Shown here piece after piece: positions 2,488 through 41,495 of a stretch of 64,000 nucleotides of DNA (positions are counted from its first letter, which is position 1; each line of letters opens with the position of its first letter). The stretch is from an uncultured Actinomycetes bacterium (lineage in GTDB: Bacteria; Actinomycetota; Acidimicrobiia; Spongiisociales; DATADW01), in contig CAWGRK010000006.1 in NCBI GenBank assembly GCA_963824995.1, positions 1 through 64,000 of the forward strand, in the 5' to 3' direction. The position numbers were made by a program, and so were the translations under genes. The notes under the pieces were generated by a model, which saw only the letters and a list, made by a program, of their open reading frames with translations, did not search any database and was not told where the DNA came from.

Positions 2488-3813
2488 GTCGTCTGGAAGA
2501 ACTGGCGGAGCGCATCCTCGGGCTGGTGGGAGCCGAGGCGGAAGCCGAGGTGCGGGTCGTCTCCAATCGGCACGGACTGACCAGGTTTGCCAACTCCTTC
2601 ATCCACCAGAACGTCGAGGAAGAGACCGCCGAGGCCGAGTTGCGGGTCGCGGTGGAAGGACGGGTGTCATCGTCTGCCACCTCCAACGTCGGGGACGACG
2701 CCCTGGATCGGTTCGTCGCCGATGCCGTCGATGCGGCCCGGCTGCAGCCGGTCGACCCGGACTGGCCGGGGGTGGCGCCACCCACCGAGGTACCCGAGAT
2801 CGACCACTACGACCCGGAGACGGCCGATGCGCCTCCCGCCGTGCGAGCCGAGATGGTGCGGAGTTTCATCGCCGCCGGCAAAGGGCTGCGCGCCGCCGGG
2901 TTCGCCGACACCCAGGCGATCAGCTTTGCCTTCGCCAACTCGGCGGGCCATCGGGCTCAGGGACGAACCACCCGGGCCACGATCGAGGGCATTCAACAGA
3001 CCGACACCTCGGCGGGGTCGGCCCACCAGACCTCGCTACGGATCGCCGACCTCGATGCAGCCACCGCTGGCGGAATCGCCGCGGAGCTGGCGCACCGCTC
3101 TGCCGCCTTCGTGGATCTGGAGCCCGGTCGCTACGAGGTGGTACTCAGCCCGGAGTGCGTCTCGACCATCGCCGTCTTCCTCGCCGTCTACGGGTTCAAT
3201 GCCCAGGCACATCTCGACGGCGGTTCGTTCGTCCGCCTCGACGAGCCCCAGTTCTCCCCACTGCTGACCATCGTCGACGACTCTTTGCGGCCCGATGCCA
3301 TCGGCCTGGGCTTTGATGTCGAAGGAACCCCCAAACGACCTCTCACTCTCGTGGAGCATGGGGTCACTCGCAGTCTGGTGCACGACCGCCGCACCGCCCA
3401 CCGGGCCGGAGTGACCTCGACCGGCCATGCTCTGGGTGCCAGCGGCTTCGGTCCGGTGCCGGCCAATGTCGTGGTCACGCCCGGCTCAGCGACCGCCGAC
3501 GAGCTCGTGGCCGGGGTGGAGCGGGGACTGCTCATCACCGAGTTCAACTACTGCCGGATCCTCGACCCCCGGACCCAGGTGGTGACCGGGCTCACTCGCA
3601 ACGGGACCTTCCTCAGTCGAGGACGGCACCATCGCCGGGGGAGTGGGAAACCTGCGCTTCACCCAGTCCTTCCTCGAGGCGCTCTCCGAGGAGAACCTCA
3701 TCGCGGTGGGTGGAGACGCCAGGTACGCCAACTCCGAGTTCGGCCCGGGTCTGATCGTGGCCCCGTCGCTGCGTCTCGCCTCCTGGACATTCACCGGAGG
3801 CGCCGCCGGCTGA
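2484..3813 (+). CDS. pmbA: PmbA/TldE family subunit (frameshift ~3615)
   Basis: ATGA overlap with tldD; LTRFANSFIHQNV, LEPGRYEVVL, FDVEGTPK, TGLTRNGTF, then NLRFTQS in the shifted frame. Confidence 0.85.
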
Positions 3814-17533: not shown

Positions 17534-17701
17534 ATGATCACCCGCTTCCTGACATCTGAAGACGGCGCCATCCATGCCCGAGTACGCCTTGATGGTGACG
17601 CTCATCGCCATGGCGGCGGTGCTCGCAGTCGTTGCTCTTCGGACAGTCGGTGAACGGTCTCTTCGACCAGCCAGAGCTCTTGACCGCTCTGCCAGGGCTG
17701 A
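17534..17701 (+). CDS. flp: Second Flp family pilin (frameshifted; 3' end uncertain)
   Basis: AAGGA SD; MITRFLTSEDGA, then SMPEYALMVTLIAMAAVLAV. Confidence 0.7.
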
Positions 17702-18101: not shown

Positions 18102-19102
18102 AGCAGCTTGATACGGCGGCTGAATGAGGAGCGCGGCGCCACCGTGGTCATCGTGGCGATCAGCCTGACGGCCCTCATTGGGATGGCCGCCTTCGCCATC
18201 GACGTCGGAGCCCTCTACGGCGAGCGACGCGAGCTCCAGAGCGGCGCCGACGCCGGCGCACTGGCCATCGCCGAGGACTGCGCTCTCGGCAAGCCATGCA
18301 CGACCGGCACCGCCAACGCCACCGCCGGCACCTATGCCAGCTCCAACGCCAACGACGGGGCAGCCGGGATCGAGTCGGTTGACCTCAACACCGCCGCCAA
18401 AGAGGTCACGGTGACAACCAAGACGCTCGACACCAGCGGATCAGACGTCTACAAGCCCTTTCTCGCCCAGGTGATCGGGTTCAACGGCACCACGGTCAAT
18501 GCAAAAGCGACCGCGGTGTGGGGATATCCGAGCGGCCTGACGACTCTTCCGCTGATCATCTCCGACTGCGAATGGGCCAGATCCGGGATACGGGCCACCG
18601 ACGTCACGGTCAAGCTCACGATTCCACGCACTCGACATCCGAGTGGCGACTGCGCGCTGGGTCCTCCGGTCATGACTCGGACGGCGATGGACAGGCTTCC
18701 GGGGGCGTTCGGCTGGCTCAACGGCTCGATCGACTGCAACGTCAACAGTCGAGAGTGGGCGACTGGATCGAGGGAGACACCGGAAACGTCGCGTCCACCG
18801 ATGCGGATGACTTGCCCGACCTGATGGAACACGACGTATTGATCCCCTTCTATGACGACTGATCTGCTTCGAGAGCCGCTGCCACGGAGTGTCAACGGCA
18901 AGTGGTATCACGTTGCTGGCTTTGGTGCGTTCACGCTCACCGGATACAAGTCTCGCTGGCGGACGGAACATGTCGGCAGCCAGTGTCTGCGAGTGGCGGC
19001 GAACGTCGGTGCATCAGCGGATATTTCACCCACGCATCCGATCCCGATGGCGAGCTCGGCGGACCCAACCGTGGTGTCGTCGTCGTCAAGTTGACCAAGT
19101 AA
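18089..19102 (+). CDS. tadG: TadG-like pilus assembly protein (several frameshifts)
   Basis: EERGATVVIVAISL..AAFAIDVG..ELQSGADAGALA, PGAFGWL, VLIPFYD, YHVAGFGAF; ends GVVVVKLTK*. Confidence 0.75.
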
Positions 19103-21207: not shown

Positions 21208-22603
21208 AATTGCACGAGCGCCTGCGGCTGGCCGACATCGCCGCACCCGAGGCTCCGCAGCCCGAGATCGCCAAGCCGGCGGTGCCCCGCGAATCGTTCG
21301 AGCCCATTGCCGACCCGCTCTCCGGGTTGAAGAACCGGGCGCAGGAGTCCCTCTTCGCCCGGCTGGGATCGCGCCTCTACGACTCCTCGCTCTCCGAGGA
21401 GCAGCTGCGCGGCCTGGTGCTCGAGGAACTGGGCCGGGTGATGGAGGCCGAGCGGATCCCCATGTCCGCCGGCGAACGCCACCGCATGGTGGCCGAGGTG
21501 AGCAACGACGTGCTCGGGTACGGGCCGATCGAGCAGTTCCTGCTCGACGATGCCGTCACCGAGGTCATGGTCAACGCCGACGACGCCATCTACGTCGAGC
21601 GGGAGGGAAGGCTTCACCGGACCGATGCCCGCTTCTTCTCCGAGGAGCACCTCCGCCGGGTGATCGAGCGGGTCGTGAGCCAGGTGGGCCGTCGCATCGA
21701 CGAGTCCTCGCCCATGGTGGACGCCCGTCTTCCCGACGGCTCCCGGGTCAACGCGGTCATCCCGCCGCTGGCGGTGGACGGTCCCGCCCTCACCATCCGC
21801 AAGTTCTCCAAGGACCCCCTACCAGGTCAACGACCTCATCCGGTTCGAGACGCTCACCGCCGAGATGGCCGATCTGCTGCGGGCCTGCGTCGAAGGACGG
21901 CTCAACATCCTCATCACCGGAGGCACCGGGACGGGCAAGACGACGTTGCTCAACGTCCTCTCCTCGCTCATCCCCTCCACCGACCGGATCGTCACCATCG
22001 AGGATGCGGTGGAGCTGCAGCTTCACCAGGACCATGTGATCCGTCTCGAGGCTCGTCCGCCCAACATCGAGGGCAAGGGCCAGATCACCATTCGCGACCT
22101 GGTGCGCAACTCGCTGCGGATGCGCCCCGACCGGATCATCGTCGGGGAGGTGCGTGGCGGCGAGACGCTCGACATGCTCCAGGCGATGAACACCGGCCAC
22201 GACGGCTCGCTGTCGACGGTCCACGCCAACACCCCGCGTGACGCCATCTCCCGGTTGGAGACCATGGTGCTGATGGCGGGTATGGACCTGCCGGTGCGGG
22301 CCATCCGCGAGCAGGTCGCCTCGGCGATCGATCTCATCGTCCACCTCACCCGTTTGCGCGATGGGTCGCGCCGAGTGACCCAGCGTCACCGAGGTGACCG
22401 GGATGGAGGGCGAGGTAGTGACGCTCCAGGACATCTTCACCTTCGACTACTCGGCCGGCATCGCCGACGATGGCCGCTTCCGGGGCACGACCAAGCCCAC
22501 GGGCATCCGCCCCCGGTTCACCGACCATCTCGCCGATCTGGGTATCACCCTGCCCGCCAACCTCTTCGGTGCGGTGGACATCAACGGGTGGCGCACGTCA
22601 TGA
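21204..22603 (+). CDS. cpaF: CpaF/TadA pilus assembly ATPase (frameshifts ~21820, ~22385)
   Basis: [52 protein letters not shown]. Confidence 0.92.
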
Positions 22604-24552
22604 GGCTGCGACTCACGATCAGCGTCCTGCTGCTGGGAGTCTTCGGGGCGTTGGCCGCACCGGCCCTCGCCGCCGAGGACGGTTTCCAGATCGAGCAGGT
22701 CGATACCAGCAATCATCCCCAGGTCACCTTGACCGCGGTGGTGGCCGGAGACGAGGGCGCCTCTCTCCAGGCGGAGGACGTGCAGCTCACGGAAGATGGC
22801 CGGGAGATCCCGGTGACGCTGCGGCGTCTGCCCACCGAGGACCTGGAACTGGTCCTGGTCATGGACACCTCGGGGAGCATGGACGGGGCCCCGATGGCCG
22901 CGGCCAAGCAGGCGGCGGTGTCGTTCCTCGAGCGCCTGCCCGAAGACGTCGATGTGTCGGTGCTCGGGTTCGGCAGCGAACCGGTCCTCGCGGCCGGCTT
23001 CTCCGCCGATCGCACCGAGGCGGTCAGCGCAGTCTCCACATTGGAGGCAAACGGCGAGACCGCCCTCTACGACGCGCTCGTGGCCGGCTCGGAGCTGTTC
23101 TCCGAAGGGAATGAGACGCGGCGGGCGCTGATCCTGCTCTCCGATGGCGGCGACACGGTGAGCAGCGCCAGCTTCGATGATGCCGCCACCGCCCTGCAGG
23201 GAGCCGGGCTGGACTTCTACGCGGTGGCGTTGGAGGGCTCGGAATTCGACATCACACCATTGAACGGCTTGACGGACATCACCGAGGGGCAGATGGCCGC
23301 CGCTGAAGATCCCGAGGCTCTGGCCGGGATCTACGAATCGCTGGCATCACAGCTCATCAACCGCTACCGGGTGAGCTACCGCTCGCAGGCACACGGCCCG
23401 ACCACGATCAATCTGAGCTTCGCCTCAGGGAACGAAACCTTGCAGGCAAGCCGCACGGTGAAGATGCCCGTCGGCACCGGCGCCCCCGACGACTGCGCCG
23501 CAGGCGACCACGCCTCCGACCACGCCGTCCGGTCCAACACGGTGCCGGCAACCACGGTGCCCGAGTTGCGGCCCGGGTCGGCGCTCACGCCGGCGCCATT
23601 GGCCCAGTCGAGCGCCCTGTTCGTGGGCTTGGGGCTGTTCTTCGTCGCCCTGCTGGTGGGCGGGCTCGCCCTGTTCGCGCCTCGCTCGCGCCGGGTGAAT
23701 CTGATCGCCCGCTTTGGCCGCCGCGGCGGCGCCGAGGCGAAGACGACCCTTTCTCGCTTGTCGAGCCGGGCCAGCTTCGCCGTCGAGGGCGCCCTCGACC
23801 GCAGGGGCAAGCGCAGCTCGCTGGCGCTCGCCCTGGAGAAGGCGGGCATCGTGCTCCGCCCCGGCGAGTTCGGTCTGCTGGTGCTGTGCGGGTCACTGAT
23901 CGCCTTCGCCCTGGGCCTGCTGCTGGCCAACCTCTTGGTTGGCATCGTCCTGGCGGTGTTGATCCCGGTGGCGGCCCGCTTCCTGGTCTCGCATCGAGCG
24001 AGTCGCCGGCAGACAGCCTTCGCCGACCAGCTCAACGACACGCTGCTGCTGTTGGCAGGGACGCTGCGAGCCGGGTACGGCTTCATGCAGGCCGCCGACA
24101 CCGTGGCCCGCGAGGCGGAGGCGCCCACCTCCGACGAGTTCCGCCGTCTCGTCCTCGAGACCCGACTCGGCCGGCCGGTCGAGGAGGCACTTGACTGCCA
24201 TGCACGAGCGGGTCGGCTCGGTGGACTTCGGGTGGGTGGTGCAGGCCATCGAGATCAACCTGGAGAGCGGGGGCAACCTGGCCGAGGTGCTCGAGACCAT
24301 TGCCGGGACCATCAGGGAGCGGGGCCAGCTGCGTCGCCAGGTCCAGGCGCTCAGCGCCGAGGGCCGCATGTCGGGCTGGATCCTGATCGCTCTTCCGTTC
24401 GGGCTGGCTGGCGTGATGTCCGTCACCAACCCGGACGTACATCTCCGAGCTGTACACCACCATGCCCGGGCGGAGTCATGCTCGGGGCGGCGGTGGTGAT
24501 GATGACCGTCGGCGCCATCTGGATGCGCAAAATCGTCAAGATCAAGTTCTAA
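22600..24552 (+). CDS. tadB: TadB inner-membrane platform protein fused to a signal peptide and vWA domain (frameshifts)
   Basis: Signal peptide ..[63 protein letters not shown]. Confidence 0.85.
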
Positions 24553-29191: not shown

Positions 29192-29292
29192 CGAACCTCC
29201 TCCGGGGCTGAGGCACCATATCAAAGGGGTGCCGGCTCCGCCGTGATACGACTCGAGAGGGACCGTGATTCCGGTTGCCATACTTCCATCAC

Positions 29293-31965
29293 ATGACGGC
29301 TCCCGACCCAGCGCTGCCCACCGGGACGGTCACGTTCGTCTTCACCGACATCGAGGGCTCGACCCGGCTTCTCCAGGACCTTGGTGCCGGCTACCGGGCG
29401 GTCCAAGCCGCACACGACGACATCATGCGGGCAGCCATCACCGGGGAATCAGGAACGGTGGTCCGCACCGAGGGCGACTCGTTCTTTGCCGTGTTCCCCA
29501 CACCGGCGCAGGCGGTACGCGCCATGGTTGCCGCCCAGCGGGCGCTCCACTCCCACTCTTGGCCCGAGGGGGTCGAACTACGGGTGAGGATGGGGATCCA
29601 CACCGGTGAGGGGACGCTCGGTGGCGACGACTACCTCGGGCTCGATGTGAACCGCGCCGCCCGGATAGGCGCCGCAGGGCACGGCGGCCAGCTTCTCCTC
29701 TCCGGCCCGGCGACCGCTCTCACCGAGCACTCACTTCCCGAGGGAGTGGAGTTGCGCGACATGGGAGCACATCGGCTCAAAGACCTTGCCCATCCCGAGC
29801 GGATCTACCAGGTGGTGGTCGCCGGGCTGCCAAGCGAGTTTCCGGCGCTGCGCTCGATGGACGCCCGTCCCAACAACCTCCCGCTCCAGCTCACCAGCAT
29901 GGTGGGGCGGATCGACGAGATCGGCGCGACGATCGACATGCTCGAGCGACATCGTCTGGTGACCCTCACCGGACCGGGCGGGACCGGCAAGACCAGGCTG
30001 GCGGTCGAGGTCGCCGGGAGACTGCTCCACCGGTTCGACGACGGGGTCTACATGGTCGAGCTCGCCGCCGTATCCGACCCGGCGCAGGTGACGTCGGCCA
30101 TCGCCCAGACGTTGGGGATTCATGAGGGCCCGGGACGTTCCATCACCGACGTCCTGACCGATTGGCTCGCCGACAGGCAGGTATTGCTCGTGCTCGACAA
30201 CTTCGAGCAACTGGTTGCAGCTGGACCCCTTGTTGAGCGGCTTCTCGGCTCTGTGCCAGGGGTCAGGCTTCTCGTGACGAGCCGTACGCCCCTCCGGCTA
30301 TATGGCGAGCACGAATTTCCCGTCCCACCCCTTCGGCTGGCAGATCCAGATGACGTCCGCGAGACAATCTTGCGGTCGGACGCGGCGACTTTGTTCGTCG
30401 AGCGCGCCCAAGCCATCAAACCGGCGCTCGACCTCAGCGACGACACCGTGGTCGCCATCGCCCGACTCTGCGCCCGGCTCGACGGCCTGCCACTCGCCAT
30501 CGAGCTGGCGGCGAGGCGGGTGAACATCCTCTCCCCGCGCGCCATCCTCACTCGGCTCTCCACCGGACTGGAAACGCTGGCGGCTTCGTCGACCAATCTG
30601 CCGGCGCGGCAACGGACGCTGCGCGCCACGATCCAGTGGAGTTACGACCTTCTGGGTGAGCAGGAAAGGGTGCTGTTTCGGAGGCTGGCCGTCTTCTCAG
30701 ATGGAGCCGATCTCGACGCGATCGAGGCGGTGGTGGGTTCGGCTGGAGAGTTCGATGTCATGGACGCGCTAGAGAAGCTGGTGGACAGCAGCCTCGTGAG
30801 GACTGCCGATTCGGAGGGAGGTGAGCCCAGGTTCGTGATGCTGCAGACGGTCCACGAGTTCGCCTCCGAGCTGCTCGGTGCGGGTCCCGATGCGGACATG
30901 ACCCGGCGCCGTCATGCCGATCGCTACCTAAATCTGGCCATCGAGGGGGAACATCACCTCACCGGCCGGGATCAAGCCGAATGGCTGAGGCGGTTCGAGA
31001 TCGAGCAGGGCAACCTCGAGACCGCGCTGCGCTGGACACTCGAGACGGGAGAAATAGAGCGCGGGATGGAGGCTGCCTCGGCGATGTGGCGCTACTACCA
31101 GCAACGTGGGCGCCTCGCCGTGGGGAGATTCTGGGTGGAGCGACTCCTTGGCGCCCCCGGCGCCGACCCCAGTCGGGCTCGGGCGGCCGCCCATCTTGCG
31201 GCAGGGAGCCTGGCCTTCTGGCAAGCGGACTACAACACGACCGCTGATCATTACCAGCGGGCTCTCGCCATGTTTGAAGAATTGGGAGACAAGCAAGGTA
31301 TCGCCGAGGCGACCTACGACCTCGCCTTCGTGCCGGTGATGACGTCAGACGAGTCCTTCGACCGCGGATTTGCCGGCCGGCCCGCCCACCTCATCGCGAT
31401 GGGCCGGCTCGAAGAGGCTCTACGCCGCTTCGAGGAACTGGGTGACCTTGGAGGAGTGGCCAAGACGAAAGGAAACATGGCTCTCTTCCTCGGCGGCTCC
31501 GGCGAGTTGGAACAGGCTTTCCCCTTGCTCGAAGAAGCAATGGCGGCTTACCGGGAGTTGGGCGACATGTTCCATCTCGCCGATGCCTTGATGGCCTTGG
31601 GCGAGGGCTATTTCATCAAGGGACAACACGCCGCAGCTCGCCAGGCTGTCGTCGAGGCCATCGGGCTCTTCGCCGATGCCGACAACACGGCCGGTATCGG
31701 CTTGGGGCTGGAGTCGCTGTCCTTCATCGAGGCGGGTGAGGGCCGGCACGATCGTGCGCTCCGGTTGTTGGCGAAGGCAGAGGAGGTCCGGGCGGGAAAG
31801 GAAGGGGATGCCAAGTACCCGATACCGGCTTCCATCTTCTATCCGGACATCGACGTGCTCAGCGACGGTCGGGCCGCAATCGGGGACGAGGCCGCAGAAC
31901 GGGAACTGGCCAAGGGTCGCTCGATGAGCCTGGCCGAGGCCATCGCCTACGCCATGGAGGATTGA
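29293..31965 (+). CDS. Class III nucleotide cyclase + STAND (AP/NB-ARC-like) ATPase + TPR
   Basis: FTDIEGST, RTEGDSF, VRMGIHTG, DYLGLDVNRAAR; GPGGTGKT, LLVLDNFE, LDGLPLAIELAA, WSYDLL; helical TPR-like C-terminus. Confidence 0.92.
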   Translation: MTAPDPALPTGTVTFVFTDIEGSTRLLQDLGAGYRAVQAAHDDIMRAAITGESGTVVRTEGDSFFAVFPTPAQAVRAMVAAQRALHSHSWPEGVELRVRMGIHTGEGTLGGDDYLGLDVNRAARIGAAGHGGQLLLSGPATALTEHSLPEGVELRDMGAHRLKDLAHPERIYQVVVAGLPSEFPALRSMDARPNNLPLQLTSMVGRIDEIGATIDMLERHRLVTLTGPGGTGKTRLAVEVAGRLLHRFDDGVYMVELAAVSDPAQVTSAIAQTLGIHEGPGRSITDVLTDWLADRQVLLVLDNFEQLVAAGPLVERLLGSVPGVRLLVTSRTPLRLYGEHEFPVPPLRLADPDDVRETILRSDAATLFVERAQAIKPALDLSDDTVVAIARLCARLDGLPLAIELAARRVNILSPRAILTRLSTGLETLAASSTNLPARQRTLRATIQWSYDLLGEQERVLFRRLAVFSDGADLDAIEAVVGSAGEFDVMDALEKLVDSSLVRTADSEGGEPRFVMLQTVHEFASELLGAGPDADMTRRRHADRYLNLAIEGEHHLTGRDQAEWLRRFEIEQGNLETALRWTLETGEIERGMEAASAMWRYYQQRGRLAVGRFWVERLLGAPGADPSRARAAAHLAAGSLAFWQADYNTTADHYQRALAMFEELGDKQGIAEATYDLAFVPVMTSDESFDRGFAGRPAHLIAMGRLEEALRRFEELGDLGGVAKTKGNMALFLGGSGELEQAFPLLEEAMAAYRELGDMFHLADALMALGEGYFIKGQHAAARQAVVEAIGLFADADNTAGIGLGLESLSFIEAGEGRHDRALRLLAKAEEVRAGKEGDAKYPIPASIFYPDIDVLSDGRAAIGDEAAERELAKGRSMSLAEAIAYAMED

Positions 31966-32022
31966 ATCCAAGTCCGAGCGAGCCGTTTTGCTGGGGCGCT
32001 GGGGGTTCGTCCCGGCGAAGAG

Positions 32023-34863
32023 GTGATGGTCGGGCTCGTCGTGGCCCTGATGTTCGTTGCGTGGGCCGGGCTGGCACTCGGGCAGAGCACCATCGACGGC
32101 CTCCTCTTTGCCCGCTTCGGTGTCGACCTGCTCCCTCTGCTCTATGTGCTGCTCGGCGTGCTGTCGGCTGTGGTCTCGCTGTTTGTCACCGGTCTCCTCC
32201 AGCGAACGCCGCCGAAGACACTCTTCCTGGCGATTCCGATGGTGCTTGCCGCCTTCTTGGTCCTCGGCCGGGTTGCGGTGTCGAGTGCGAGCGCGACGGT
32301 GTACGGGGCTCTGTGGCTTCTCGCCGGGATGGCGCTGCTCGTTCAGGGCTTCTATCTGTGGGGGGTCGCCGGACTGGTCACCGACACCCGTCAGGCGAAG
32401 CGGCTCTTCCCGTTGTTCGCCGCCGGCGGCATTGCCGGCGCCACCGTGGGCGGCTTGGTTACCGGCCCGCTCGCTGCCTGGCTCGGGGCGGAGAACCTCT
32501 TGCTGGTTTGGGCGGCCACGCTGGTTGCTGCCACTGCGCTGGCCCGGCGCATCCTCGCCGACTACTCCGCTCCGGTGGCTGCGATGCCGCGCCGACCATG
32601 GCAGCCCTTGAATTCCATCCGACAGGGATGGCACGTTCTATGGGCATCGACCATGTTGCGATGGCTCGCTGCGGCGGCGTTGCTCTTCTCGGTGCTCCTC
32701 TACTTCCTCTACCTCCCCTTCTCCCGGGCCGCCTCGGAGCGGTTCCCCGACGCCGACGGTCTGGCGGGATTCCTGGGGACGTTTACCGGGGTGGCTACCG
32801 GCGTCGCCCTCCTCGTGTCCGTCCTCGTGGCGAGGCGTCTGTTCGCTCGATGGGGCGCCTCCTCTGTGGTCGTCGGTTATGGAGTGGTGTACGTCGCCGG
32901 CTTCGCTCTGCTCATCATCGATGCCTCTTTCATTCCCCTGGCGGTGGTGCGGTTCGTCCAACTGGTGGCGATGCAGGGTCTGGCCAACAGTGCCTGGGAG
33001 ACGATGATCAACGTGACTCCACCCGAGAGGCGCGACCAGGCGCGGGCGTTCATCAATGGTCTGCCAGCCCAGGCCGGAACCGCGCTGGCGGGAGTCCTTC
33101 TCCTCGCAGGTGAGGAGAGCCTGGGACCGAGCGTTCTGTTCACCTTGGGCCTCTTACTGGCACTGCTGGCGACATTTGCCAGTTGGCGGGCGAAGCGGGG
33201 CTATCCAGGCGCGGTGGTCGAGACACTCCGGACCGGGCGCCCCCATGTGTTCGATGCCTCACCACTCTCTTTGGTGGACGCGGCTGCCATCGACGCGGTG
33301 ACCTCGGCGGTGACCGATCCCGATCCCAGAGTCCGCCGAGTGGGAGTGGAGATGCTGGGTGGGCTGCCCGGAGTCTCCCCGTCGCACGCCCTGCGGACCG
33401 CGCTGAGCGATTCCGATGCGGACGTGAGGGAGGCGGCCCTCCGCGCCATCGTGACCACCGGGGAGCTGCCACCTGACATCGCCGAGATGCTGGCCGATCC
33501 GGTGGCCGAGGTACGGCTCGCCGCGGTGGCTGCAGTCGGCGAGCTCGGCGGGGAAATCGGGGGTCTATCCCCGCTGCTCGTTGACCCCGACCCAAGGGTT
33601 CGGGCGCAGGCGGCGTCGTGGGTGAGTCGGGAAGATCCCGACGTGGTCTCATCGATCCTGGCCCCGATGAGCACCGATGAGGATGACCTAATGCGGGCCA
33701 TCGCGGTCGATGCCATGGTGCACGCCAAGAGTGTTGCGGCCTATCGGCTTGTAGCGGATCGGCACGACGACCCGAGCCCAAACGTGCGTGTGTCCGCAGC
33801 GCGCGCGCTCGCCTCGATCGACCCGGAGCGCTCGGTCATGACCCTTGTCGAGATGCTCGCCGACGGAGACCCCGATGTCCTCTCGGAGGTCGCGACTGCG
33901 ATAGGCCGGGTTGGTGTCACTGCATTGCCGGCCGTGGCCGATGCGCTCGACAGCGCCGAGACCGAGGCGGGGGCCCTGCTGGCACTCGGGGAGCTGCCTC
34001 ACGACCAGATCGCCGGCCGGATCCGCTGGTTCGCCGAGCGGCAGGTAGCCCAGTCGAAACAGGATGCCGGGCTCGCCGCCGCCATAGTCGCCAACGGGGA
34101 CGAGCGATGGATCCTCATTCGGGATTCACTCACGGGGCTCTACCTGAGGGAGGCCCGCCATGCCGTCCGCGCCGCGGTGTTGCTCGATGATGACTCCCCG
34201 TTGAGAGAAGCGCTGGACAACCTCAGCAGCGAGGACCCGGCTCAGCGCGCCGGTGCGATCGAGCTGATCGACTCGTCACACGAGGCCGTGCTGCTTCGCC
34301 CGCTCATTTCCGTGCTGGAGGGGACCGAGACCGGGGAAGGCCCGTTGCCGATTCCCAAGCTGCTGGGCCATCATGACCCTTGGATTCGAAGATGTGCCGA
34401 GTTCGCCACGAGCCCTGGAGATGAGATGGCACGGACCCTGGCCACACTCAGTTTGATGGAGCGAGTCCTGTTCCTGCGCAAGGTCCCGCTGTTCGCCCAT
34501 CTCGCCCCTCAGGATCTCGAGCGGATAGCCGAGGTGACAGAGGAACATGCCTACGGCGATGGAGACACCATCACCACCGAAGGTGACCCTGGCATCGAGA
34601 CGTACATCGTGGTTTCAGGTGCGGTGGTCGTAATCCGTAACGGCTCCGAGGTTGCCCGGCGCGGGGAAGGCGCCGTAGTCGGAGAGATTGCGATTATTGG
34701 GGACCAGCCTCGTACGGCGTCGCTCATCGCGGCCGGCGACGTCCGGTTGCTCAGCATCGGTCGCAGGCAGTTCACCGCCATCCTCAGGGAGCGTCCCGAG
34801 ACGGCGCTGGCGGTGATGCGTGTCTTGGTGCAGAGGCTCGCCGAGCGGGACAGGCTGGCTTGA
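32023..34863 (+). CDS. Npt/TLC-like (MFS) membrane domain + HEAT repeats + C-terminal cNMP-binding domain; true start probably slightly upstream
   Basis: About 12 TM segments with DTRQAKRLFPL; repeated DPDPRVR/DADVR/SPNVR HEAT units; ERVLFLRKVPLF, EGDPG, GEIAIIGDQPRTA phosphate-binding cassette. Confidence 0.85.
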   Translation: MMVGLVVALMFVAWAGLALGQSTIDGLLFARFGVDLLPLLYVLLGVLSAVVSLFVTGLLQRTPPKTLFLAIPMVLAAFLVLGRVAVSSASATVYGALWLLAGMALLVQGFYLWGVAGLVTDTRQAKRLFPLFAAGGIAGATVGGLVTGPLAAWLGAENLLLVWAATLVAATALARRILADYSAPVAAMPRRPWQPLNSIRQGWHVLWASTMLRWLAAAALLFSVLLYFLYLPFSRAASERFPDADGLAGFLGTFTGVATGVALLVSVLVARRLFARWGASSVVVGYGVVYVAGFALLIIDASFIPLAVVRFVQLVAMQGLANSAWETMINVTPPERRDQARAFINGLPAQAGTALAGVLLLAGEESLGPSVLFTLGLLLALLATFASWRAKRGYPGAVVETLRTGRPHVFDASPLSLVDAAAIDAVTSAVTDPDPRVRRVGVEMLGGLPGVSPSHALRTALSDSDADVREAALRAIVTTGELPPDIAEMLADPVAEVRLAAVAAVGELGGEIGGLSPLLVDPDPRVRAQAASWVSREDPDVVSSILAPMSTDEDDLMRAIAVDAMVHAKSVAAYRLVADRHDDPSPNVRVSAARALASIDPERSVMTLVEMLADGDPDVLSEVATAIGRVGVTALPAVADALDSAETEAGALLALGELPHDQIAGRIRWFAERQVAQSKQDAGLAAAIVANGDERWILIRDSLTGLYLREARHAVRAAVLLDDDSPLREALDNLSSEDPAQRAGAIELIDSSHEAVLLRPLISVLEGTETGEGPLPIPKLLGHHDPWIRRCAEFATSPGDEMARTLATLSLMERVLFLRKVPLFAHLAPQDLERIAEVTEEHAYGDGDTITTEGDPGIETYIVVSGAVVVIRNGSEVARRGEGAVVGEIAIIGDQPRTASLIAAGDVRLLSIGRRQFTAILRERPETALAVMRVLVQRLAERDRLA

Positions 34864-36342: not shown

Positions 36343-37528
36343 GTGAGTGCGCCGCGTAGGGTCTGGCCTCCTCCCGCTACCCGGCTCGATCATCTGCGTC
36401 TTGTGGGTGATCCGCCGGCGGACGACGTGGTGACCCGCATATTCGAGGCTCGCGGGCCAGCCGCCATCGACAAGCTGCAGAGCGGGCTGTTCCGCTATGA
36501 GGCGGCAGAGGATGCTCTTCCCGGGGAGGCGGCGAGCTTCATGGCCGAGCCGGTGGACACCCTGCAGCTCGAGATCGGGCACGGACAGGAGTTGTTCCAG
36601 GAGATGGGGCCCGAGGTCCTCCTCATCCTCGGCTGCTACTCGCTGCCCGCCGCCTACGCCGCCACCAAGGGTGCTCGAGTTCTCGCCCAGACCGGTTTCC
36701 TCACCGAGGACACCGACCGCCGGCTCGGCGAGACCTCGCAGATGGTGGTTGACGTGATGGCGACAGGTGGTCTCGAGCGGGGTGGCACGGGGATCTGGGC
36801 GGCGCGCAAGGTGAGGCTCATGCACGCCGCCATACGCCATCTGGTGTTGGCGCGCACGCGATGTCCGCTGGGAGACCGAGCGCGACGGCACTCCTATAAA
36901 CCAAGAGGACCTCGCTGCCACGCTGATGACCTTCTCCTACCTGGTGGTGACCGGCTTGCGCCGCCTCGGCTTCTGGGTGTCGAGCACCGCCGCCGAGGAG
37001 TACCTCGCCGCCTGGAAGGTGGTGGGAGGTCTCATGGGGGTCCTCCCCGAGCTGATCCCCGCCGATCTCGACGAGGCCGGCCAGCTAACAGAGACGATCG
37101 AGTCCCGACAAATCGCTCCTGGTGAAGTGGGGCGTGGGCTGACGACGGCGCTCCTGGCCGTACTCGACGCCAAGACGGCTCCGGGAGTGCCGGCGGCATT
37201 GATGCGGCGGATGCTCCCTCGCTCGGTGTGCGATGGGCTGGGTGTTCCGAGACACAAGGTGCGTGATGGTCTCGTGGTCGCGATGTGCGGCTTGGTGCGC
37301 TTGGTCGACCCGGTCTTCCAGCTCTTTGGCACCAGGACGGCCGCCTACCGGAGGTTCTCGATGGACCTCCTCGGTTACCTCATCGAGCGGGACAGGGGAG
37401 GCGAGCGCGCCGAATTCCGGCTTCCTACCGAACTCCACGACTTCTGGAAGAAACAGGGGGATCGGAACGCCCCCGGAGCGAGGATCGCAAATCGGGTGCT
37501 CGCCATCGGGGCGCCCGGACCGGCATGA
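36343..37528 (+). CDS. MpaB/Lcp (DUF2236-like) haem oxygenase family protein (frameshift ~36860)
   Basis: GDPPADDVV, SLPAAYA, RRLGETSQMV, KVRLMHAAIRH, then PINQEDL..TLMTFS, YLAAWKVVGGLMGV. Confidence 0.85.
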
Positions 37529-40500
37529 ACTCCGGTCAACCACAACCGGGGCCAGTCCGGGGTGAGGTCGTGGCGCTGCTCAGCAGGATGGCGTGCCGTA
37601 CATACGCCCTGCGGCCGGCCGATGGAACCGGACCGGTGGCGAGCACGGTGGAGGCAGTGACGCTGGTCGCCGATGTCAGCGGATACACAGCCATGTCCGA
37701 AGAGGTGTCGCGCCGCGAGGCAGGCGGCGCCGAGATCATCCTCGAAGGCGTCAACAGCTGTATGGAGCCCCTGGTCCGGGCGGTGCTCGTCCACGGGGGC
37801 GACGTCACCTCCTTCACCGGAGATGGCATCCAGGCGGTGTGGCCGAGCGAGGAGGACGCGCAAGGCGATGACGTGCTCCGGGCCGCCGCCGCGGCCCACC
37901 AGGCTCTGGCGCTGGTCGACGGGTTGGTCGTCCCGCCAGGGTTCGGGCTAAGGCTCCGAGTCGGAATCAGCACCGGGCCGGTCAGCTGTGCGGTGGTCGG
38001 CGGCGTCGCCGGGCACTGGCTGGCCGTCATTGGCGGCCCCGGAATGGCGACCGCCGACCGCTCTCAGAGTGAGGCACGTCCGGGGGAGGTCGTTGTATCG
38101 GCCGAAGCCGCCATGCTGGTCGACGGTGCCTTGGAGGGCTCGGCCATGTCATCTGGCGCTATCCGGCTTCGAGGCGCGCCCCGAGCAACCCGGCTCTCGG
38201 CCCCTGTCACCCGAACCCGATGTCCCATTCGAGAAGCTGCTGCCCCACAGCGTGATCACCCTGTTGGGATCGCGTACCGGGTCGAGAGGCGAGATCAGGT
38301 CGGCTTCGATGCTCTTCGCTCGACTTCCCGCCGGCCCCGAGGACCTCGAGGCTCTCCACGGCTCGGTTGCGGCGGTGCAGTTGACGGCGCAGCGGTTCGG
38401 CGGGGTGGTGGAGGACGTGGCGGTGGAGGAAAAGGGCGTGCTCGCCAGGGTGTGTTGGGGGCTGGCCATGCATGCCCACGATGACGACGCGGTGCGAGCT
38501 GTCTCCGCCGCTCAGGCCATCCATCAAGACCTCGACGAGAGACCCGGTGTGGGCGTTGCCAGCGGCCGTGTCATCCATGGGCTGATAGGGCCGCCGGAAC
38601 GGCGCACCTACACCGTTATCTCGAAGGTGACCAACCTGGCGGCGCGCCTCGCCGGCGCCGCCGGCCAGGGAGTGCTAGTCGACGGCACCACCCGGAGCCG
38701 GGCACGTCGCTCGATCTCGTTCGAGCCGGTCCCAACGATCCACCTCAAGGGGATCGAGGGTTCGATGACCTTCTACCGCCCCTTGGGGGCCAGGCAAGAG
38801 GAGCGGGAGTCAAGGTCCGGCCATGGTGGGACGGCTGGGTGAGAGGACGCTGCTGCGCGAGGCGGTGCGGCGCCTTGCCTCCGAGGGGGCGTCGGCTTCG
38901 GTGGCGATCGAGGCGGAGCCGGGAATGGGGAAATCGGTCTTGCTCAGGTCGGCCATTGCGGAGGCGGCTGGGTCCACTTTGTCGATCATCGAGATCACCG
39001 GCGACGCCCTCGAGGACACGGTGCCCTACCGAGCTGTCCGGCCGGCGCTGGAGAGACTCCTCGGGCGGGGTGAGGGTGCGCTCGATCGGGCACGCGGCAT
39101 CCTGGGCGACATCTCCGATCACGACGCCGATCTGCTGGGTGCCGTCATCGGGGGCGTCGGTGACGAGGGCAGTGCAATCAGCTTCGAGACCAGAGTGGAG
39201 GTCACCCGCCGCCTAACCGCACGCCTCATCGCCATTCTCACCGAAGGGCGCCCGGTGCTTGTTGGCATTGACGATGCTCAATGGGTCGATGGCGCTTCTT
39301 GGGAGCTCCTGTCGGAGCTGTGGAGAACCCTTCCCGCCGTGGTCATGGTGTTCGCCCATCGCCCCGTTGAGCGAGAGTGGCCGGAGGGGACGCACCACTT
39401 GACGCTGGCGCCGCTTGGCCGCGCCGACACCGCTGAGCTGATCGGGGACCGTCTCGACAGCGATGCGGCACCCGACGACCTGGTGGACGCGGTTTGGGGG
39501 CGCGCTGAGGGGCACCCGTTGTTCACGGAGGAGATCTTGCGATCGATGCGGGACCAGGCGGTGGTGACCGTGGCCGGTCCCGACCGCGACGTCTCCTTCG
39601 ACAAGAGCAGGTGGGAGGGCGGGGTGCTGCCCGAGTCCGTGGCTGCTTCTATCTCGTCGCGGCTGGAACGATTGGAACCCCATGCCCAGCGGGTGCTCAC
39701 TGTGGCCAGCGTGCTCGGCACAGTCTTCGAGCCACAAGTCGTGGCGGCCATCCATCCCGATGTGCCCGGCATCGACGAAGTTGAGGACTCGTTGGACACC
39801 GCCGTCGGGGCCAGACTGGTGCAGCGGGAGCCCGAGGGGACGGTCCGGTTCAGTCACGCCGTCATCGCCGAGGTCGCAGGGTCACGGCTGCCGGTGCCCG
39901 AAGAGCGCCTGCTTCATTCGGCAGCCGCCGAGGTCTTGTCTGCCCAAGGAGCCGAGCCGGCCCTGATCGCGCACCACCTGGTCGGAGCCGGAAAGCCGTT
40001 GGATGCACTCGATCCGCTGGAGGCGGCGGGGCGGCAGGCACTCGCCGCAGGGGCATACACCGATGCCAGCGAAGAGCTCGAAATGGCAATCGAGCTCGGG
40101 GCGGAGGCGGTCGCCGACGAGCGGCTCGCGGAGTGGCACCGGCTGCTGGCCGCTGCGGCTCGCCTTCACGGAGACGTGACACGAGCCCGCGCCGAGGCCG
40201 AGGAGGCCTCGGCACTTCTCGGGATGGCTGTGCCGAGTTCAGCGCGCCGGCAAGACAATCGGGCTGATGGGACAGGCAATCATCCAGACCGGCCACCGAC
40301 TGCTGCCTACCCGGCGGCTGAGCGGGCCGAAGGCGGCGAAGCGGGTTCAACAGGCCGAAGCCACCTATGACCTCTTGTTCACCGCCTTCTCCCAGGCCGA
40401 CACCATGGCGCTCTTCCACCATGGCGTCCGGGCCGCCAACCTTGCGGAGCGGGCGGCGCCATCCTCGGTGGAGGCTCGGGCACTGAGCTTCCTCATGTAT

Positions 40501-41495
40501 GGGGTCGGGCTGGCCGGCATGAGCGGCCTCTCGCGCCGCTACCACGAGAGGGCGCTGCGGATTGCTGACGAGGCGAGCTCGCCGCTGGCCCGGGCTGAGG
40601 TCCTGCTCAACCGCATGGTCTTCCTGGTCACCATCGGCGCCTGGTCGGAGACGTTCGAGATCGGGGCTGAGTCGAGGGCGGAATACGAGTCCATCGGCGA
40701 AGCACGTGGTGTCCGCAGCGTCATCGGGGTCGAGGCCTTTGCGGCGCGCCACCACTTGGAAGTGGAGCGGACAACGGTCCTGCTGCGTGAGCTCGGAGAG
40801 CGCGCCGTCCTTGCCGGTGACGACCTTCACGTTACCTGGACGGGCCTCGCCGAATCGGTGCTCGACGTGCTGAGGGGGGACTACGAGGCAGCGATGGCGA
40901 AGTGCGAGGACCTTGCAGGCCGCGCCGACCGGGTTGCCGAGGTTCCTTCCTTGCTGGAGCGTCTCGGGATACTCACCCTCGCATCATGGCGTGTGGGGAG
41001 GATCGACGCATCCGGCCGATACCTCGCCGAGGCGGCGGACCTGGTGGCGACATCTCCCCGCTTGCTGCCGTCCACGCCTACGACGGGTATTGGATGCTGG
41101 CCGAAACCGCCATGGCCATCTGGGAGGCAGGCGACACCGGGGCTCCGCTCCCGGCAGGGGGTGATGCGATTGCCGCCGCCGATGCTGTCATCCGGCCGCT
41201 CTTCGGCCAGGCGCGCACCACCCCGATCGCCCGGCCCATGGCACTCGTGGTGAAGGGCCATCAGGCGCGCCGCGCCGGGCACACCCGGAAGGCGCTCCGG
41301 CTTTGGAGCCAGGCGGTCGAGCTGGCTGGCGGTCTCGACATGCCGTACCCGCTGATGCGGGCCCACCTGGAGCGGGGTGGCCACGGGCCGGACGCAGACG
41401 ATGGGACGGCCGACCTGGATGCGTCGTTGCGGCTTGCCCGGTCCCACAAGGTCAGGTGGATCGAGGAGCGGGCTACCGAGGCCCTTCGAAGGTGA
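37525..41495 (+). CDS. sAC-like tandem class III cyclase + STAND ATPase + TPR (frameshifts ~38210, ~38820, ~40250, ~41070)
   Basis: C1 ADVSGYT, FTGDG, LRVGISTG; C2 EEKG, HDDDAVRAV, YTVISKVTNLAARL, IHLKG; AEPGMGKS, IDDAQWVD, EGHPLFTEE; TPR-like tail. ATGA overlap with the oxygenase. Confidence 0.82.

Follow-up and report, generated by a model that had tools for sequence, protein, structure and literature searches.

A class III cyclase-STAND gene and its neighbouring NTT-like, putative cyclic-nucleotide-binding transporter gene in an acidimicrobial genome

The gene pair and its domains

We analyzed a stretch of 64,000 nucleotides from an uncultured Actinomycetes bacterium of the class Acidimicrobiia (assembly GCA_963824995.1, contig CAWGRK010000006.1, positions 1 to 64,000, forward strand), hereafter the window, which has a G+C content of about 66% and finds its nearest relatives among metagenome-assembled genomes (MAGs) of Acidimicrobiia. 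Region 29275-34863 is filled by two co-oriented open reading frames (ORFs), here called gene A and gene B; these and all other features of the window described below lie on the forward strand. A first-pass annotation, made from the letters alone, had described A as a class III nucleotide cyclase joined to a STAND ATPase and TPR repeats, and B as an Npt/TLC-like protein of about 12 transmembrane (TM) helices with HEAT repeats and a domain for binding cyclic nucleoside monophosphates (cNMPs), and both ORFs and their domains were confirmed by Pfam searches and, for B, by AlphaFold2 (AF2) models. Our central result is that in two phyla the B gene almost always travels with a cyclase gene or a cyclase-like gene, to which it is sometimes fused.

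Gene A occupies positions 29293-31965 (ORF P0001) and encodes 890 amino acids (aa) from an ATG at 29293 or 896 aa from a TTG at 29275, the start from which P0001 is numbered. Its cyclase catalytic domain (29317-29781, residues 15-169) matches the Pfam family Guanylate_cyc (PF00211) at E 3.4e-10, with 40.3 bits against a cut-off of 21.9, and a family search of the whole genome also recovers A as a class III cyclase. The NB-ARC/STAND NTPase module follows at 29944-30648 (NB-ARC at residues 224-458, E 6.9e-7, 29.2 bits against a cut-off of 23.5, together with an AAA_22 match). The translation contains GPGGTGKT, LLVLD and GLPLA, which we take to be the Walker A, Walker B and GLPLA motifs of STAND proteins. 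The C-terminal TPR region, a putative sensor, spans 30832-31962 (about residues 520-896), with TPR_12 at residues 728-797 (E 4.2e-12). In NCBIfam, neither A nor B scores above any curated cut-off.

The metal-binding Asp pair, the N..AR motif and the Arg at the usual Lys position, all picked out at the first pass, were read again in the translation and in an alignment of 80 cyclase domains. The metal positions are D25 and D68, the transition-state positions N126 and R130, and the substrate-specifying positions Arg64, where Lys is usual, and Asp119, which is kept, so that A departs from the Lys/Asp pair of adenylyl cyclases. These columns presumably correspond to the canonical class III positions. 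The resulting D-R-D-D-N-R pattern is common to the orthologues at loci L001, L010, L014, L016 (both copies), L017 and L058; the same columns include Ser and His in L003 and Lys in the Chloroflexota relative L022. Arg at the Lys position is kept in 8 of the 9 complete actinomycetotal domains of A's architecture (type a below). With both metal-binding Asp residues, the Asn, the Arg and Walker A and B intact, the cyclase of A looks competent.

At the A-B junction (31963-32022), A's TGA (31963-31965) is in frame with B, and 57 nt separate it from the first canonical start of B (GTG at 32023; an ATG follows at 32026). Orthologues of B open about 8 codons earlier, at an ATG that begins 'MVGVRPGE...', and the conserved 'RPGE' lies upstream of the first canonical start in the window. 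Because the orthologous ATG is replaced by a CTG (31999) in the window, the N-terminus of B is uncertain by about 8-17 residues. The spacing between the two genes is about 10-35 nt in the orthologues and about 10-60 nt when the window is included, and these short gaps indicate that A and B form a tight operon. We considered a read-through of the TGA that would fuse A and B, and rejected it: A and B are in one frame in the window and also in L001, L010 and L003, which is 4/6 and near chance, L017 and L058 differ, and the orthologues have their own ATG.

Gene B (32023-34863, ORF P0002) encodes 946 aa and contains an NTT/TLC-like membrane domain (32023-33237, residues 1-405), a HEAT-repeat solenoid (33280-34422, about residues 420-800) and a C-terminal cyclic-nucleotide-binding domain (cNBD; 34549-34791, residues 843-923). 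The solenoid is matched by Pfam HEAT_2 (E 1.2e-25) and HEAT and by AlphaRep/HEAT entries in the PDB; the cNBD is matched by cNMP_binding (PF00027) at E 6.6e-17, with 61.7 bits against a cut-off of 27.5, and by PKA and PKG regulatory subunits in the PDB at E of about 1e-34. The full-length AF2 model contains all three modules, the TM domain, the HEAT solenoid and a beta-barrel cNBD. The phosphate-binding cassette (residues 887-903, 34681-34731), read as intact at first sight, follows a GE...PR.A pattern that is invariant in 57 of 57 aligned B homologues; the Thr of 'PRTA' occurs only in the window, the family having mostly Met or Ile there, and no correlation was seen between this residue after the Arg and the type of partner cyclase. 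Judged by these motifs, the predicted cNMP receptor of B is competent.

Relatives of B are numerous (894 at E up to 1e-3), and among the best 120 of the 894 nearly all align over 97-100% of the query at 40-78% identity; their source names read 'HEAT repeat protein' or 'Npt1/Npt2 family nucleotide transporter'. With its order of NTT-like membrane domain, HEAT repeats and cNBD in one protein, B fits the NTT-HEAT-cNBD family. It is a single-copy gene in the genome of the window. Each of the 5 other genomes of the genus has the pair; of 35 genomes elsewhere in the order, only G021 (an unpublished genome) has a long B match (37% identity), and three more match the cNBD alone.

The relation of the membrane domain to Npt/TLC proteins was at the outset a weak call. 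Pfam TLC covers residues 110-293 at E 1.7e-4, where the score of 21.0 bits just equals the cut-off of 21 and becomes 23.6 bits when only the membrane domain is searched, the NCBIfam model of NTP/NDP exchangers, TIGR00769, gives 21 bits against a cut-off of 387, and a single-sequence phmmer search of the membrane domain against the PDB returned nothing at E up to 10. The call nonetheless holds up under family-profile, PDB and fold tests. Across the family, 25 of 27 members match Pfam TLC and 22 match MFS_1, and a profile of these 27 sequences run against the whole PDB hits only two sequences, both NTT1 (9j3n at E 2.1e-7 and 9j3j at E 1.5e-6). The AF2 model of the domain has twelve TM helices (pLDDT 88.3, pTM 0.86), and its first three Foldseek ranks are 9j3n, 9j3m and 9j3l (TMq 0.72-0.80, about 15% identity), with generic MFS carriers ranking lower; 9j3n is NTT1 of C. 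pneumoniae, and 9j3j, 9j3l and 9j3m are Arabidopsis NTT1. The domain keeps an invariant DTRQAKRxFP, and the family's invariant 'AKRxFP-LFG' aligns with the 'EAKRFY-LFG' of NTTs. Since the profile, the family-wide Pfam matches and the Foldseek ranks agree, the membrane domain of B is a predicted divergent NTT-type MFS fold.

The same data bear on whether B transports anything. Coupling to a cyclase could be real with the NTT-like domain serving as a membrane anchor or substrate sensor (a 'transceptor') and the HEAT repeats as a cNMP-controlled scaffold. The low identity to NTT1, a domain about 90 residues shorter, the Pfam score at its cut-off and the typical role of HEAT repeats as protein-binding scaffolds (PMC5381601) speak for this reading, which we nevertheless consider decidedly unlikely: the model retains the twelve helices and the MFS fold with high confidence, the AKR motif is shared with NTT1, and many charged or polar membrane positions (D121, R123, K126, R127, R310, R337, R341, Q350) are invariant in the 27 sequences.

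Cyclase genes beside B homologues

A scan of species representatives in GTDB, for which B homologues were aligned as the query, confirmed 371 relatives, and we examined 76 species-level loci. A cyclase hidden Markov model (HMM), built from the cyclase domains in these loci, was run on six-frame translations. When class III cyclases and DUF2652 genes are counted together, a cyclase or cyclase-like gene stands no more than 2.5 kb from the B homologue in 69 of the 76 loci. A class III domain lies no more than 2.5 kb from B in 47 of 50 loci from Actinomycetota, 4 of 25 from Chloroflexota and the one unclassified locus (1/1); where both flanks extend for 2.5 kb or more, these fractions are 36/38 for Actinomycetota and 0/14 for Chloroflexota. 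Matches to the cyclase HMM have a density of 1.62 per 10 kb in the near zone around B versus 0.35 in the far zone. Two loci outside the 69 are nearly adjacent cases, one with an adjacent 1206-aa cyclase gene whose domain is 2.9 kb off (L028) and one with a STAND gene followed by a cyclase-STAND gene (L027). Neighborhood conservation had been set beforehand as a point on which the proposed pairing could fail; what was found is this linkage and, in addition, two single-chain fusions described below.

In Chloroflexota the place of the cyclase is largely taken by another gene. Clustering of 548 neighboring ORFs to find conserved neighbors in this phylum revealed a gene for a protein with DUF2652 and Polyketide_cyc2/SRPBCC domains, directly upstream of and co-oriented with B in 17 of the 25 loci (e.g., L015:8844-9953, L039:8820-9953 and L075:7642-9836), all 17 without a detected class III cyclase. 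The gene is sometimes in tandem, with up to five tandem or nearby copies in L049. Aligned by hhalign, the DUF2652 and cyclase-domain alignments match with a probability of 85% (E 5.8e-6), pairing ADISGYT with TDIEGST, KLEGDAVF with RTEGDSFF and GSDVNLxHRL with GLDVNRAARI, so that the columns of the metal Asp, Lys, Asn and Arg coincide; in the DUF2652 genes beside B, every catalytic column of class III is kept. DUF2652 had previously been proposed to be cyclase-like, and cNMP-binding neighbors were described for some DUF2652 genes (PMC4886424, Biol Direct 2016). Linkage to B homologues gives these proteins a functional context as probable cyclases.

The class III partners themselves are diverse. 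Pfam finds PF00211 in 21 of 22 partner ORFs, which display at least five architectures. Type a, found in the window, is cyclase-NB-ARC-TPR with Arg for Lys; type b, of about 1200 aa, is Zn-ribbon-cyclase-AAA_16-MalT-like TPR, also with Arg for Lys; type c, of about 680 aa and convergent with B, is TPR/SNAP-like-cyclase with the catalytic set D H D D H R; type d, of about 400 aa, joins a MerR/Ad_Cy_reg module to a cyclase with the canonical D K D D N R; and type e comprises small stand-alone cyclases of about 300 aa with His for the transition-state Arg. Relative to B, four arrangements of the partner are seen: co-oriented on the upstream side, co-oriented on the downstream side, divergent and convergent. 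In a maximum-likelihood tree with 57 full-length homologues of B, drawn from the 76 loci and the window after setting aside 12 partial or frameshifted loci and 8 with internal stops or truncation (L007, L024, L040, L043, L045, L051, L055, L068), the partner type must change at least 12 times across the 57 rows; the clade of the window has 7 rows, 6 of them of type a. The class III partner of B is replaceable yet always a predicted cyclase, and the STAND architecture is not essential to the pairing, since at least six partner types, this one included, replace one another.

Ten proteins were recovered as longer relatives of B, of which eight share the HEAT repeats only and two are fusions. These metagenomic proteins, P0123 (2129 aa) and P0124 (2154 aa), carry TLC/MFS, HEAT, cNBD, Guanylate_cyc, AAA_16 and TPR domains, in this order, in one chain. 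An apparent third fusion, an ORF of 2167 aa in L006, was rejected as a stop-to-stop ORF in an alternative frame: it has neither HEAT nor cNBD matches in Pfam, and at that locus the cyclase gene opens just past the NTT stop.

In six loci (L012, L018, L041, L044, L045, L050), 2-4 different cyclase genes of types e, c and d are clustered downstream of one B homologue. This arrangement suggests several sensory inputs feeding one receptor.

Could this adjacency arise without functional coupling, simply because cyclase genes are abundant? The genome of the window has about 22 of them in 2.9 Mb (about 0.08 per 10 kb), 8 in ORFs of more than 870 aa, and relatives of A usually lack a B neighbor. At that density, however, a neighboring cyclase is expected by chance for about 1-2% of genes, against the 69 of 76 observed with varied partners and orientations, and fused proteins exist. 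Because of the linkage and the fusions, adjacency without coupling is strongly disfavored and in our estimate highly improbable; coupling of B to its cyclase neighbors is the reading we carry forward.

In L001, L002, L003, L009, L010, L014, L016, L017 and L058, the gene immediately upstream of the B orthologue is an orthologue with the architecture of A, and tblastn finds the TPR segment of A conserved among these orthologues. The identities of A and B to their respective orthologues drop in roughly the same order across loci. In L016 (4057-9945) the cyclase-NB-ARC-TPR gene is present in two tandem copies ahead of the B homologue, both with the frame breaks typical of this long-read MAG. Frameshifts or in-frame stops also break the A and B orthologues in L002, L014 and the same-genus genomes G002-G005; within the genus, such breaks are probably sequencing indels rather than gene decay. 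Among metagenomic loci found from the side of A, L095 has a distant A relative, no NTT partner and, at 3122-3475 just upstream of that relative, a stand-alone cNMP-binding ORF.

A predicted cyclic-nucleotide circuit and its alternatives

We put at roughly 60% the probability that A and B constitute a two-gene cyclic-nucleotide circuit, in which a local cyclase would make the ligand that regulates a transporter. From the observed architectures, motifs, fold and linkage, including the fusions, we infer how A is activated, what it makes and what B carries. A would act as a STAND (NLR-like) switch, in which a ligand at the TPR region drives ATP-dependent oligomerization and so brings the N-terminal class III cyclase domains into active dimers. 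These would produce a 3',5'-cyclic nucleotide, most likely cyclic AMP (cAMP), which would bind the C-terminal cNBD of B; binding, relayed through the HEAT solenoid, would then alter the 12-helix NTT-type transporter, whose cargo is probably anionic and nucleotide-like. The idea of a self-contained second-messenger circuit, already put forward in the first-pass annotation, gains support at the level of comparative genomics, with the qualification that its STAND component can be replaced.

Several points weigh against this interpretation. Because A has Arg for the adenine-specifying Lys, and unusual catalytic residues occur in several partner types (D H D D H R; N..H for N..R), the identity of the product and even cyclase activity are putative. 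B resembles TLC proteins only distantly, with about 15% identity to NTT1 and a Pfam score that just reaches its cut-off, and a nucleotide cargo is for this reason no more than a candidate; since the full-length model of B reaches a pTM of only 0.60 (pLDDT 84.7), its relative domain placement is not reliable. The cyclase HMM was made from cyclases of the same loci and may favor the types found in the near zone, and five loci have no cyclase-like neighbor: L005, L008 (downstream flank missing), L062, L063 and L073. The pairing is one-sided, holding from the side of B and not from that of the cyclase: among 80 metagenomic loci with relatives of A (best-segment identity 36-52%), 22 carry a cyclase domain, and none of these 22 has an NTT-HEAT-cNBD neighbor, with several flanks being short and at least 7 of the 22 having more than 1 kb downstream. 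Finally, cross-talk is possible because the genome, beyond its roughly 22 cyclases, has at least four other cNBD matches.

The linkage would look the same if B carried the product of the cyclase. In such an export or homeostasis scheme, B would move cAMP or another cNMP out of the cell and, with its cNBD sensing how much is inside, would raise efflux as synthesis increases. A transporter beside a nucleotide-making enzyme is the classic producer-exporter arrangement, and the clusters of 2-4 cyclases around one B would suit it, as would the varied nucleotides taken by NTT-type carriers, for which NAD transport is cited (PMC5381601). We regard export as possible but unlikely: canonical NTTs are exchangers or importers (PMC5381601), and the scheme gives the large HEAT domain no role. 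Regulation of the transporter by the cyclic nucleotide is the arrangement we prefer.

The pair was also likened at first pass to Pycsar antiphage systems, an analogy that gained little backing from the searches. Spelled out, it would make the pair a hybrid of Pycsar and Avs causing abortive infection, in which A senses phage through its TPR region, the cNMP opens B, ATP or other nucleotides are lost and the infection aborts. In its most novel form, the pair would sense infection or danger in the manner of NLRs, and in place of lysis its output would be a cNMP-opened NTT carrier that dumps adenine nucleotides or no longer imports them. In A, a STAND ATPase stands between an enzymatic effector at the N-terminus and a repeat sensor at the C-terminus, which is the layout of NLR-like bacterial defence proteins, and a cyclase with a cNBD-bearing membrane effector follows the logic of Pycsar, whose PycTIR effector models in PADLOC match B through the cNBD only (E 1.3e-18). 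The distribution of B is patchy above the genus level, with that single long match among 35 other genomes of the order, and the presence of the pair in Acidimicrobiia and Jiangellaceae suggests transfer as a unit.

Other results speak against defence. A PADLOC search of 33 ORFs at 11-52 kb gave no match at E 1e-5 or better, and the neighbors of the pair are Tad-pilus and housekeeping genes (PfkB, SurE, DUF1059, MOSC, formiminotransferase and an MFS_3 carrier among them). The best PycC model scores A at E 1.3e-3, with 16.3 bits versus the 40 bits of the general Pfam model, so that A does not rank as a PycC-type cyclase, and B, a 946-aa NTT-HEAT protein, departs from Pycsar effectors, in which a cNBD is fused to a TIR or a short TM module and the context is one of defence. 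Partners elsewhere carry an Rv1264-type domain, an SRPBCC domain or, as stand-alone cyclases, no extra domain, and these are not invader-sensor layouts, many partners being physiological sensors of an ordinary kind; B, for its part, is single-copy and fixed in the genus (5/5 genomes), and its NTT-HEAT(-cNBD) family extends across cyanobacteria, chlamydiae and oomycetes (PMC5381601). We accordingly give little credence to the antiphage scheme, and equally little to its immune-sensor output, which if true would represent a new effector class in cyclic-nucleotide defence and the first secondary nucleotide transporter gated by a ligand. Most likely, the module serves physiological signaling or nutrition rather than protection against phages.

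If the circuit that we favor is correct, a cyclic nucleotide would gate a secondary transporter, something rarely seen, and one subclade among Actinomycetota's many orphan STAND cyclases would gain an output. Proteins of the NTT-HEAT(-cNBD) kind make up a large family in many bacterial phyla and in oomycetes with no characterized member. For them, the linkage turns a speculation on cAMP published in 2017 and discussed below into a concrete two-protein hypothesis, a dedicated local cyclase feeding a cNMP-regulated transporter.

Two further features lie near the pair. A second cyclase-AAA_16-TPR gene at 37414-41489, 2.5 kb downstream of B, was traced by tblastn with the intact 1366-aa ORF of L001, to which it is syntenic at 79-88% identity; it is broken over frames 1, 2, 3, 1, 3, has a degenerate set of catalytic residues (D S D G A R) and is either a pseudogene or a product of assembly indels. 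Upstream, within the Tad-pilus cluster (TadE at 17574, Tad at 18108, T2SSF at 24462), a single 895-aa ORF at 21865-24552 combines a C-terminal piece of a T2SSE/TadA-type ATPase with VWA and a weak T2SSF match, and is either an odd fusion or an assembly artefact.

Relation to known systems

Mycobacterial STAND adenylyl cyclases are a known class with the order cyclase-ATPase-TPR-HTH (e.g., Rv0386). Like A, they begin with a class III cyclase, which a STAND/NB-ARC-type ATPase and TPR repeats follow, and they too depart from the Lys/Asp pair. Unlike them, A ends after its TPR region, with no LuxR-type HTH among its Pfam hits, and stands in a predicted operon with a cNMP receptor-transporter.

Pycsar resembles A-B in that a cyclase gene adjoins the gene of an effector with a cNMP-binding domain and membrane helices. 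It differs in that A is not PycC by score and carries a STAND sensor, that B is a predicted 12-TM transporter fold with HEAT repeats, and that the pair has no defence-island context.

With NTT1/Npt1, B shares the region W-G-x-A...AKR-[FL]-[YF]-P-L-F-G. Its membrane domain is shorter (about 400 versus about 490 residues), it bears a 540-residue cytoplasmic extension of HEAT repeats and cNBD, and it belongs to a free-living organism.

DUF2652 proteins, which take the place of the cyclase beside B homologues in 17 Chloroflexota loci, have no representative in the window; the main text of the paper that described them contains neither 'transporter' nor 'HEAT' (PMC4886424).

The closest precedent for B is the clade of NTT-HEAT and NTT-HEAT-cNBD fusions, described as monophyletic, widespread and uncharacterized (Major, Embley & Williams 2017, Genome Biol Evol, PMC5381601), whose NTT-HEAT-cNBD members have the same order as B: an NTT (PF03219)-like domain, HEAT repeats and a C-terminal PF00027. 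Those authors sampled one actinobacterial and two Chloroflexi sequences and speculated that the transporter and ATP uptake might be tuned by cAMP that an adenylate cyclase supplies; in the text of their paper, 'cyclase' occurs once, in this speculation, and no cyclase neighbor or fusion is reported (PMC5381601). In the literature searched, which did not include the supplements of that study, we found no report of a cyclase linkage of NTT-HEAT-cNBD genes. The first-pass annotation knew of no characterized system with this pairing, which stands as far as characterization goes; it falls short in that the NTT-HEAT-cNBD architecture and the cAMP idea were published in 2017 (PMC5381601) and STAND cyclases were known. 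Neither architecture is new, and the linkage between cyclase and B is what we did not find in print. Compared with the 2017 study, the linkage to cyclase genes is quantified here, and forms in which the two are fused have been found.

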